From a virus, in IMG/VR virus record IMGVR_UViG_3300003323_001142, positions 1 to 26,296 of that record: a stretch of 26,296 nt of DNA. One strand, given 5' to 3'. Under the pieces are notes generated by a model. That model was not told where the DNA came from. It made no database searches and saw only the letters and a list, made by a program, of their open reading frames with translations. Shown in pieces: positions 3,677-25,760 of this stretch. Position 1 is the stretch's first letter; each line of letters begins with the position of its first letter. The position numbers and the translations under genes are program-made.

Positions 3677-3735
3677 CCTCCAATTGAGCCACCGCGGCTC
3701 GGTAGGGCCCCGGTCGCACCCGGGTCCCAGCCGAA
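3677..3735 (-). repeat. Intergenic structured repeat copy A (hairpin with GTGCGA loop + CCGAGCCG...GCTCAAT..GAGG)
   Basis: Aligns with 5183-5242 and shows compensatory stem changes. Confidence 0.75.
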
Positions 3736-3743
3736 TCGCGCGG

Positions 3744-4025
3744 CTATCCGGCCGCCAATTCGCCGCGAATCTCGCGCACGCAGTGCCAAAAGTATTCCTC
3801 GACCAGCATCGGGAAGTCGATCGCGAAGAACTCGACTGCATCGGCCGAGAGGTTAAGGATCGCCCGGGTGGCGTCCCACTGGGCATCCACCCACTCCGCG
3901 GACGGAGCGGCCACGGGCCCAGATCCGACCACGATGGTGTTCAGGTAAATCGAGGCGACCTCGCGGGCCTCGCCAATGATGAAAGGGAGTATGGCGCTCA
4001 TCTTGGTGGTTTCCGTCGTGCTCAT
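3744..4025 (-). CDS. Hypothetical protein (93 aa), probably leaderless
   Basis: ATG 7 nt downstream of the -10 box; starts MSTTETTK. Confidence 0.7.
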   Translation of the reverse strand: MSTTETTKMSAILPFIIGEAREVASIYLNTIVVGSGPVAAPSAEWVDAQWDATRAILNLSADAVEFFAIDFPMLVEEYFWHCVREIRGELAAG

Positions 4026-4581: not shown

Positions 4582-4827
4582 TCACGCGACCCGATTGCGC
4601 CGTCGGTAATACTCTGCATGTTTCGTGCAGAGCGTCTTGCCTTTCAGCGCGCGCTCGCCGCACACGACGCATTTGCCCGCGTCTTTGCGCGCCTCTCGCC
4701 GCTCGGCTTCGCGCTCTCGTGCTGCTGCGAGGTGTTCAGCGCACCGGCGCTTGCCCGGCTCTGGCGCCGCGCTGCACTCGTGGCAGGTTTCACCGGCTGC
4801 TCTCGCTTTATGGGCGCCACTGCTCAC
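4582..4827 (-). CDS. Small double zinc-finger protein (CxxC-x9/10-CxxH twice)
   Basis: CHECSAAPEPGKRRCAEH and CVVCGERALKGKTLCTKH joined by a charged helix; GTGA overlap. Confidence 0.75.
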   Translation of the reverse strand: MSSGAHKARAAGETCHECSAAPEPGKRRCAEHLAAAREREAERREARKDAGKCVVCGERALKGKTLCTKHAEYYRRRNRVA

Positions 4828-24057: not shown

Positions 24058-24690
24058 TCACGAACCCCCCGTCGACGCCACCGCGCGCACTGTCCCTCCC
24101 GCCGGCGTCCGCGCGATCCAGAGGCCAAGGCTTGCGACCTTGGCCGCGTAGCCCGCTCCGCTGTGCAGAATCAGCTCCAGCACGGCTTCGAGGGCGTTCT
24201 GCCTTCGGACGTGATCGGCGACGGACTGCTCTAGCCGCTGAATCGTCGCCTTGTGGTGGGCGAGCTCGTCGCCATCGACGGCCGGATCGGGGAACTCTGC
24301 ATCGCCGGTGGCGCACGGAACAGAATCCGAATACGTCCCGACGATCAGCGGGTGGGCCTGCTTGCGCTCGACAGCCCGGAGCCGGCCGGAGAGGTCACCC
24401 AGGAGCAGGCGGATCTCGTCGAAAAGCTTCTGCGTGCGCTGTGTTGGCCGGCCCCCGTCAATCCATTCCGCAAGCGCACGATCCAGATCCTCCAGCGTAG
24501 CGAGATCGGGTGGCGCCGTTCCGGTCGGCGCTTCGAGAGCGTCAAGCCGAGTGCGGAAGTCATCCGCGTCGCCTTCCAGCGAGGCGATCCGCCGCTCGTG
24601 GTCGCGGTGGAGATCAAGGTGGGATTCGCCGATCGCGCCGCCGATGTGGGGGACAAATGCCTCCTCGAAGGTTTTGAGCGCGCCAGTCAT
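24058..24690 (-). CDS. Coiled-coil hypothetical protein
   Basis: HERRIASLE, RLDALE, RLRAVE repeats; ATGA coupling. Confidence 0.7.
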   Translation of the reverse strand: MTGALKTFEEAFVPHIGGAIGESHLDLHRDHERRIASLEGDADDFRTRLDALEAPTGTAPPDLATLEDLDRALAEWIDGGRPTQRTQKLFDEIRLLLGDLSGRLRAVERKQAHPLIVGTYSDSVPCATGDAEFPDPAVDGDELAHHKATIQRLEQSVADHVRRQNALEAVLELILHSGAGYAAKVASLGLWIARTPAGGTVRAVASTGGS

Positions 24691-24878
24691 CGCGGCACCC
24701 ATACGCAGACGCAGCCGGTGTGCGAGTTCCACCTTGGCGTCATTCCGCTCGGGCACCCGGACCGTTGCTCGCAAGCGTCGTCCAGCTTGCGAAGCCCAAA
24801 CAGCAAAACGGCAATGAGGGCGAGCGCGAAAGCGAAGAACGCCAGTTCTCCCCTGTTCCTTTGGATAAACCGCTTCAT
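24687..24878 (-). CDS. Small single-TM protein with Cys-rich C-terminus
   Basis: Hydrophobic helix followed by four Cys. Confidence 0.7.
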   Translation of the reverse strand: MKRFIQRNRGELAFFAFALALIAVLLFGLRKLDDACEQRSGCPSGMTPRWNSHTGCVCVWVPR

Positions 24879-25014
24879 GTGTGCCTCGTCATGTCACCGC
24901 GGATCCGCCGGATCTCGCGCACGCTCGCAATCAACTCTCCGACGAGCATCTCCCCCGACAGTTCATCTCGATCGATTCCGAATCGCGCGAGCGCCTGTCG
25001 GCAATCGGAACGAA

Positions 25015-25186
25015 TGGGAGCGGCCCCGTTCTGACCGGGGTTTTGGGCCTTCTGCCTATCCTCTGCCGGAGCTACCGGCATACTCTCGGCGCCACCGGGG
25101 GTCTCCCGGCTCTTTCTACTTGCCCAACTCGCTTTACCGTAGACGCGGTCTTTCGCGGTCGTGTCACCATCCACGCCGCCGCTCCC
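25015..25186 (-). ncRNA. tRNA-like structured RNA (172 nt) with expanded central domain
   Basis: 8-bp closing stem GGGAGCGG/CCGCTCCC+A; D-like arm CGTG-GATGGTGA-CACG; T-like arm CCCCG-GTCAGAA-CGGGG; internal stems. Confidence 0.65.
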
Positions 25187-25194
25187 GTAAATAC

Positions 25195-25305
25195 TTGCCG
25201 GTCTCTCCCGACTGTCACGCGAAACTGCGAGGCGCCCGCGTTCAGCGCTTTCGGATTCCGTACCGCTGTTAACGCCGCGTTTGGATACCGAATAGGTCAA
25301 CTCGC
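25195..25305 (-). ncRNA. Structured RNA element
   Basis: GCGAG/CTCGC closing stem; GCGTT-CAGCG...CGCTG-AACGC hairpin; terminal GTCGG-GAGAGA-CCGGC hairpin. Confidence 0.5.
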
Positions 25306-25308
25306 GGG

Positions 25309-25429
25309 TGGAGCATCCGGGACTCGAACCCGATCGATCTTCGCGGCTGCTACCCCGCGCGACCCGCCCTCCGAAAGCAGCTCGAGCTCGCATTTCGGAT
25401 TGACGACAGCTCCCGGCTGCTATTGCCCC
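25309..25429 (-). ncRNA. tRNA-like RNA (121 nt) with Ala-type acceptor stem and no anticodon loop
   Basis: GGGGCAA/ATGCTCC+A (G3:U70), TA linker, D arm GCAG-CCGGGAG-CTGT, T arm TCGGG-TTCGAGT-CCCGG. Confidence 0.7.
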
Positions 25430-25464
25430 AGAAAGTGCCCCGTATGCCCGGGGCCACGGCCCGA

Positions 25465-25528
25465 TGATGTCCGCAGAGGCCGAACCCGCGATCGTCGGAC
25501 AGCAAGCCGTCCGGCAATGTCGGGCATC
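25465..25528 (-). ncRNA. Degenerate D-armless tRNA-like element (64 nt)
   Basis: GATGCCC/GGACATC+A; CGGAC..GTCCG arm; T arm GCGGG-TTCGGCC-TCTGC. Confidence 0.4.
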
Positions 25529-25732
25529 CTGCAAACCAAGTGCTTCGGCTGCACCTCCCTCACGCGGATCGCTGGGCGGTTGGCTCTCATGGCTCGTCCC
25601 GTCCTCCCCGCTCGGCAATTGGAAGCTTTCGCGGGCGCCACCCGCACGCGTCAGGACCCTTTCCGCAACCAGCGGGGCGCAAAAGGTCCCATGGTCGCCT
25701 CCTTGGCAAGGCGCTGCAACTGTGTGCAATCG

Positions 25733-25760
25733 AGTATACATCATACCCCGCTGTTCGCAA
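25733..25760 (-). promoter_or_regulatory. Sigma70-like promoter TTGCGA-N16-TATACT
   Basis: Read directly; AT-richer patch immediately upstream of the non-coding RNA cluster. Confidence 0.65.

Follow-up and report, generated by a model that had tools for sequence, protein, structure and literature searches.

Architecture of the locus

The DNA analyzed here (the window; 26,296 nucleotides) constitutes the first 26.3 kb of an uncultured virus record of 101 kb (IMGVR_UViG_3300003323_001142), and the same DNA is also contained in a root-metagenome assembly, the contig being present in sequencing run SRR1924237. Between about 25.7 kb and 13.2 kb the genes are encoded on the minus strand, and among their products are a RecE-like nuclease, a Sak4-like ATPase, a HerA-like ATPase, and an integrase; the same-strand operon starts further upstream, near contig position 30.7 kb. 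On the same strand, between a non-coding stretch of 580 nt and the recombination genes of this operon, lies the 172-nt element under study. Positions 25190-25740 were scored as non-coding by codon statistics trained on the long genes of the same phage. No ordinary tRNA gene was found by ARAGORN on the window's own contig. The features of the region are as follows.

25733-25760, minus strand: sigma-70-like promoter candidate for the non-coding stretch, from a consensus scan
25309-25429, minus strand: anticodon-less tRNA/tmRNA-like element, 122 nt upstream of the 172-nt element
25187-25220, minus strand: upstream module of a conserved 7-nt word, a hairpin with a 5-bp stem and a purine loop, and an A/U-rich spacer of 10 nt; compensatory stem changes
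25186 to 25015, minus strand: the whole element, 172 nt; MFE fold of -79.8 kcal/mol
25179-25186, minus strand: 5' strand of the acceptor-like terminal stem, 8 bp, pairing with 25023-25016 (MFE fold)
25156-25178, minus strand: D-like arm with a 4-bp core stem, an 8-nt loop containing GG, and three extra pairs flanking a bulged A
25136-25149, minus strand: small hairpin at the place of the anticodon arm, 4 bp and a 6-nt loop (MFE fold); not kept in homologues
25043-25127, minus strand: large inner arm located where a class II tRNA has its variable arm, with a 6-bp closing stem and a three-way junction (MFE fold)
25094-25110, minus strand: hairpin of the inner arm (MFE fold)
25054-25090, minus strand: extended arm of the inner arm with a 7x7 purine-rich loop (MFE fold)
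25024-25040, minus strand: T-like arm formed by a 5-bp stem and a UC-containing loop of 7 nt, adjoining the 3' strand of the terminal stem (MFE fold)
25015-25023, minus strand: 3' strand of the terminal stem (25016-25023) and the unpaired discriminator base, A (25015) (MFE fold, alignment)
24875-25174, minus strand: rival 99-aa ORF with a GTG start at 25174, its stop overlapping the ATG of the next gene

Predicted fold of the window copy

The initial annotation had described a tRNA-framed RNA enclosing an ornate inner domain, and all the stems that it listed are present on the minus strand in the MFE fold. This fold was unchanged when the element was folded as part of a 781-nt context. A 5-bp anticodon stem with a 7-nt loop is not formed; the D-like arm is followed by the 4-bp hairpin with its 6-nt loop, from which the anticodon-loop signature is absent in the MFE fold. 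Position 3:70 of the window copy is a G-C pair, and its T loop is non-canonical.

A stability no better than that of dinucleotide-shuffled controls had been named beforehand as grounds for rejecting the fold. Against 200 such shuffles the element gave z = -3.78; the same z was reached by 0.6% of 156 random 172-nt windows from the same contig. After adjustment for GC content, the energy of the element was within the top 3.5% of 8070 windows. Given this folding background of its own genome, a few equally stable windows are expected by chance in 26 kb. Thermodynamics alone is borderline and cannot settle the case. The most over-stable 172-nt windows after GC correction were found elsewhere on the contig, outside the window, at 46876-47122 and 58926-59147 on the plus strand (about -3.4 to -3.75 sd).

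Homologues of the element in other viral contigs

The exact 17-nt D-arm word of the window was used as the seed for a homologue search and was found in 19 uncultured viral contigs. A covariance model built from a single sequence (R1) matched end to end in 12 of these 19 contigs, with scores of 27-53 bits. A second covariance model, restricted to the frame (terminal stem, D-like arm, and T-like arm), was built from six of these sequences with the window left out (R2). With it the window copy reached 66.6 bits (E about 1e-14), and further members were found, including one without the exact D-arm word (L066). The variant word of this member led to 18 more viral contigs and to a second subfamily. 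The D-arm signature, which the initial annotation had proposed to trace across phage genomes, was thus recovered in 19 viral contigs in its exact form and in 18 in its variant form. The resulting family alignment comprises 27 distinct sequences of 100-252 nt.

Other routes did not extend the family. No member was found with nhmmer and R1 at 73 RecE-like loci, among which R2 afterwards detected the single member L066; neighbouring proteins led to no homologous loci; and a gapped D-loop/T-loop pattern yielded 12 stretches in genome contigs, none of which was confirmed by a model. GenBank phages gave no blastn match with the 1.7-kb region or with one family member as queries, and R2 detected no member in 302 bacterial genomes sampled from one order and one phylum, nor in five further genomes. 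The family was not turned up in literature searches.

The comparison with Rfam that had been suggested at the outset was made with Rfam 15, and no family matched the element in the window at gathering or permissive thresholds, the latter giving noise only; an Rfam tRNA hit was not obtained up to E = 10. At 10 homologous loci, Rfam produced only two tRNA hits, both away from the family members. ARAGORN never called the element in default mode, in relaxed mode, or with introns allowed (0 genes).

Conservation and covariation of the tRNA-like frame

The homologues were ascertained through exact D-arm words and their alignments were fitted to the models, and the following values for the 27 sequences are to be read accordingly. 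We found 98.0% of the frame pair cells to be paired, compared with 32.7-38.1% with slid partners, and 11 of the 17 frame pairs show changes on both sides. The covariation score was reached by none of 500 shuffles. In the terminal stem, which is 7-8 bp long across the family, all eight pairs change on both sides with 95.8% of the cells paired, while the T-like stem is 100% paired and shows both-side changes at three of its five pairs. The core and loop of the D-like arm (columns 9-27) are invariant or nearly so in the 27 members; since homologues were collected through exact D-arm words, this invariance is partly there by construction.

The elbow letters, GG in the D loop and UC in the T loop, are invariant in all 27 members and may form the tertiary pairs. 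A precedes the T-like stem in 26 of the 27 sequences and occupies the discriminator column, behind the terminal stem, in 15. Most members have a D stem of 5-6 bp. Three types of T loop occur: the 7-nt non-canonical type of the window, a canonical tRNA-type loop (L085, L100, and L092), and an 8-nt loop in subfamily 2. The 3:70 pair is C-G, G-C, or U-A in nearly all members, and CCA is not encoded in most of them. The inner domain differs in length and sequence between members and cannot be aligned across the family, with a short word seen by eye to be common to the inner domains of a few members. An anticodon loop is also absent from the short members.

These results bear directly on the claims of the initial annotation. 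Its central proposal, a selected RNA fold, is borne out by the covariation of the terminal and T-like stems in 27 sequences, and a lack of structural conservation in homologues, which it had named as a possible refutation, was looked for and not encountered. The tRNA scaffold that it postulated is upheld by the invariant letters of the D and T loops, by canonical T loops in some members, and by the siting of members in tRNA arrays. Two further readings fell short: the letters of a loop-E/sarcin-ricin motif are present in the window copy, but the motif is not kept in the unalignable inner domain, and a protein-binding role of this domain found neither conservation backing nor a recurrent protein partner in the members' neighbourhoods. 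As the inner domain differs in both length and sequence, neither reading is backed by conservation.

Some members show additional features. In L095 (4182-4351, minus strand), a second complete cloverleaf with a canonical T loop is nested, in the predicted fold, inside the inner domain. L117 carries two members about 800 nt apart (3696-3821 and 4633-4738; also in L123), which differ in their terminal stems and inner domains. The element in L093 (739-1034; the same as L086) has an imperfect direct repeat on its two sides, about 35 nt long and containing an RBS and an ATG. This repeat would represent a duplicated gene start or a recombination junction, and it hints at a cassette-like mobility of the element.

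Coding potential of the element

The window copy lies within an open reading frame with a Shine-Dalgarno-like start, which the initial annotation had not remarked on, and the stretch might be taken for the 5' half of a small ORFan gene whose fold arose by chance in GC-rich coding DNA. Several observations favor this explanation. A coding-like signal extends in one frame from a Shine-Dalgarno-like word at 25186 to the stop at 24875. Its P value is about 0.003 (shuffles, six frames) when the 172 nt are taken by themselves, and three sub-segments are each significant; the 31 in-frame codons just upstream show no codon signal. The arrangement of GGGAG, 7 nt, and GTG corresponds to the RBS layout of other genes of the same phage, with GGGAG located inside the 5' strand of the terminal stem, and the stop/start ATGA overlap of the 99-aa ORF is typical of this operon. 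In addition, a public 288-aa gene call spans the element, and the homology to locus L081 stops at this point.

Against this stands the behavior of the family. The 26 homologues keep the fold by compensatory changes, and the length differences between their inner parts are not multiples of three. Stops interrupt the window's open frame in seven of 10 subfamily-1 homologues, and in six of the 10 all three frames contain them. The terminal-stem word of the window recurs in L126 and L118 as a stem and not as an RBS, so that its Shine-Dalgarno-like look is incidental. The 99-aa product had no relatives by word search, in PHROGs, or in the Atlas, and no protein relative for residues 191-289 of the longer call was found among 1.84 billion representatives. 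Moreover, the N-terminal 56 residues, which include the part overlapping the RNA, are disordered in a structure model, and the GC3 of the ORF (0.68) is below that of most neighbouring genes (0.75-0.86). On account of the stops in the homologues and the covariation, the coding reading was rejected as the main explanation, and we regard it as very improbable. The stops, together with the missing relatives, show that the family is not protein-coding; the window copy could additionally be translated.

In the 137-nt stretch that separates the element from the next gene (24878-25014, minus strand), the same codon-like frame contrast persists (0.74). A 24-aa frame beginning at an internal ATG could lie here, or the stretch could be the end of the 99-aa frame.

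Genomic context of the family members

Members of subfamily 2 are located inside phage tRNA gene arrays, where they are co-oriented with real tRNAs. The gap to the real tRNA on the same strand is 5 nt in L119 and L131, 14 nt in L116, and 99-248 nt in L128, L132, L115, and L125, and these sizes fit polycistronic tRNA precursors. Members of subfamily 1, to which the window copy belongs, are found in early regions near recombination genes, which encode Sak4-like and RecT/Bet-like proteins and exonucleases. No recurrent neighbour protein family was detected in the members' neighbourhoods.

In the upstream module (25187-25220), the A/U-rich spacer of 10 nt follows the hairpin and reaches to the first base of the element. 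In L102/L085 (two copies) and in L089, the same word and hairpin precede the element by 28-35 nt; they are present without the element in L081. In L102/L085, a tRNA with a truncated anticodon arm is located 147 nt upstream of the family member, so that L102, an unrelated phage, has a window-like two-element layout. The co-occurrence of word, hairpin, and tRNA-like element elsewhere indicates that the layout of the window, in the order tRNA-like element, hairpins, and 172-nt element, is partly repeated in unrelated phages.

The neighbouring tRNA/tmRNA-like element

The anticodon-less element at 25309-25429 has a canonical T arm and a G3:U70-type acceptor. The block from 25458 to 25234 shares 75% nucleotide identity with L081 (755-982), with compensatory changes in the T stem, and this homology ends exactly at the start of the 172-nt element. 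The neighbouring element resembles the coding-sequence-less tmRNA form of phage DS6A (PMC11915505).

About 32 nt at ~25270-25305 (minus strand) are identical to L081 amid the 75% identity; they make up the 5' side of a hairpin, and the two loci differ in its loop. A search of metagenome contigs with a 20-mer from the core of this block gave only a chance match in unrelated sequence of lower GC content. Public gene calls of 288 aa in the window (24875-25741, minus strand) and 195 aa in L081 (589-1176) cross the non-coding RNA. The 48% 'protein' identity between the two calls, a match from an exhaustive protein search, is RNA-level conservation, and both calls are therefore probably spurious, at least upstream of 25190.

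Both the window (24687-24878, minus strand) and L081 (425-616) encode a membrane protein of 63 aa whose tail is rich in Cys (39% identity, E = 7e-9). Relative to the RNA module, its gene is downstream in the window and upstream in L081, and in both an ATGA overlap couples the gene to the preceding frame. The same phage also carries a T4 Rnl1-type RNA ligase gene (PF09511) at contig position ~33.9 kb (L080 1-93, minus strand in L080), which, given the phage's tRNA-like RNAs, may have a bearing on tRNA repair.

Relation to known tRNA-like RNAs

Three known identities were considered for the element and rejected. It is not a tRNA, as it has no anticodon arm and tRNA finders reject it. A tmRNA was dismissed on the basis of the G-C pair at 3:70 and the lack of an ARAGORN or Rfam tmRNA hit, and a non-systematic look noticed no tag frame. 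The 8/5 geometry of a tRNA-Sec is present, but the UCA anticodon loop is absent.

With canonical and class II tRNAs the element shares a terminal stem that stacks on the 5-bp T-like arm, the GG and UC loops, one unpaired base, a large arm just before the T arm, and the siting of members in same-strand tRNA arrays. In contrast to tRNAs, the family has no anticodon stem-loop, the window copy has an 8-bp terminal stem, the D stem is mostly 5-6 bp, lengths range from 100 to 252 nt, and the T loop is non-canonical in most members.

Non-tRNA RNAs have been described among phage tRNA genes before. The tRNA cluster of phage T4 contains 'species 1 and 2', stable non-tRNA RNAs of about 120-140 nt that are matured together with the tRNAs; by this description they resemble the family. 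The mascRNA/MALAT1 elements and the engineered 'tRNA scaffold' employ a tRNA-like frame for processing by RNase P/Z and for the protection of a passenger RNA; they are eukaryotic or artificial, whereas the present family is from phages, and we know of no natural phage family of this kind that has been described. The c4 RNAs of P1/P7 and the CI RNA of P4 are small RNAs with phage-specific variable parts that RNase P cuts from early or immunity transcripts. Unlike the element, they have a different fold and are represented by the Rfam C4 family, for which no match to the element was obtained.

The tRNA-like acceptor/T frame enclosing a non-tRNA domain is a feature that the element has in common with tmRNA. 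Reduced phage-encoded tmRNA forms exist, and a coding-sequence-less form, which shares this feature, has been reported for Mycobacterium phage DS6A (PMC11915505). The element differs from tmRNA in lacking G3:U70, in its stem of 8 bp instead of 7 bp, and in possessing a real D stem. Its longer acceptor stem and large extra arm, and the family's long D stem, are reminiscent of tRNA-Sec and of the allo-tRNAs of bacteria and their phages, for which 8/4 and 9/3 acceptor/T geometries are reported in PMC5389517. Those molecules decode, are about 90 nt long, and have anticodon loops, which the family has not.

Discussion

The fold of the family is under selection, the family is non-coding, and its members are co-oriented and tightly spaced with tRNA genes. 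We are therefore highly confident that the element is a real conserved RNA. Taken as a whole, the data are probably best explained by a phage family of tRNA-derived structured RNAs which has no match in Rfam 15 and whose members would act in trans. Counting against this explanation are the open frame of the window copy with its codon-like signal and Shine-Dalgarno-like start, the lack of the element in L081 in spite of the shared upstream module, the missing matches in GenBank phages and in the 302 sampled bacterial genomes, and the lack of a recurrent protein partner. The family retains those parts of a tRNA that make up the coaxial stack of acceptor and T stems and the D-loop/T-loop elbow, it has no anticodon arm, and a large domain placed between the D-like and T-like arms varies from phage to phage. 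An acceptor/T stack with the elbow letters is the substrate of RNase P, of 3'-processing enzymes, and of CCA-adding enzymes. As such a frame is recognised by the enzymes of tRNA maturation, the RNA would be excised from its transcript. The early or tRNA-array transcript would serve as the precursor, from which host enzymes could release the RNA: RNase P would cut at the 5' end, the 3' end would be trimmed, and CCA might be added. We consider maturation by the tRNA pathway rather probable. The product may then accumulate as a stable, tRNA-shaped, non-decoding RNA and act in trans, with the tRNA-like frame, the variable domain, or the two together as the active part. It might serve as a decoy or sponge that occupies a factor binding tRNAs, or as a carrier by which an RNA module specific to the phage is stabilised and presented; we put forward such a decoy or carrier role tentatively. 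Even more speculative, and doubtful at present, is a natural 'tRNA chassis' in which a host-processed frame bears an exchangeable, fast-evolving cargo and works as a trans-acting decoy or regulator, for instance toward tRNA-directed defences or tRNA-binding host factors, or as an anticodon-less amino-acid carrier, forming a tRNA-mimic array together with the neighbouring element.

Among possible functions, we infer a ranking in which a trans-acting decoy or carrier comes first, followed by a cis-acting processing signal and then by a chargeable molecule. RNase P recognises tRNA-like frames, for which mascRNA is a precedent, and the element could thus be a tRNA-like processing signal in a long leftward early transcript, the excised RNA being a by-product. 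The location of the element inside a same-strand operon, between the non-coding stretch and the recombination genes, is consistent with this, and other members are also found between early genes. RNase P and 3' processing would then part the upstream non-coding RNA from the downstream mRNA, which runs from the 63-aa gene through the RecE-like and Sak4-like genes on to the integrase, and so set their stabilities. We regard a cis-acting signal, also in this specific form, as unlikely, given that tRNA arrays hold no mRNA to punctuate and that the large maintained inner domains are left unexplained, since a plain tRNA-like minihelix would do.

An RNA that is aminoacylated and acts in or on translation in the manner of tmRNA or the DS6A form, or that donates its amino acid in a non-ribosomal reaction, appears improbable to us. 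An acceptor-like stem followed by an unpaired discriminator A, together with the large class II-like arm, would suit such a molecule, and the Ala, Ser, and Leu aminoacyl-tRNA synthetases do not read the anticodon. Furthermore, a tmRNA-like element lies 122 nt upstream, and the DS6A form offers a precedent (PMC11915505). However, the Ala synthetase needs G-U at 3:70, where the element has G-C and nearly all members C-G, G-C, or U-A, and most members do not encode CCA; ARAGORN and Rfam gave no tRNA or tmRNA match to the element, nor Rfam to the family members, and no conserved tag frame was noticed in the non-systematic look. A functionless, decaying pseudo-tRNA with insertions could account for the absent anticodon loop, the non-canonical T loop of the window copy, and the failure of every tRNA caller to accept the element, but it is hardly credible in view of 98% pairing maintained via many double changes, 27 diverged copies, and invariant loop letters. 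We thus favor the family of trans-acting, tRNA-derived structured RNAs.

Non-decoding tRNA-like RNAs are few, comprising tmRNA, the modules of Y RNAs, viral 3' ends, and mascRNA, and each of them has been instructive on how cells read the shape of a tRNA. The family described here adds at least 27 diverged phage copies in which the acceptor/T stack and the elbow letters are kept, the anticodon is dropped, and a hypervariable insert is present. Gene callers translate across such RNAs, as the 288-aa call exemplifies, and thereby create false 'proteins' whose homology is really at the RNA level. The family is concrete and testable, with RNA ends, RNase P cleavage, charging, and partners all being measurable, and it may explain some of the gaps that annotation has left in the tRNA arrays and early operons of phages.
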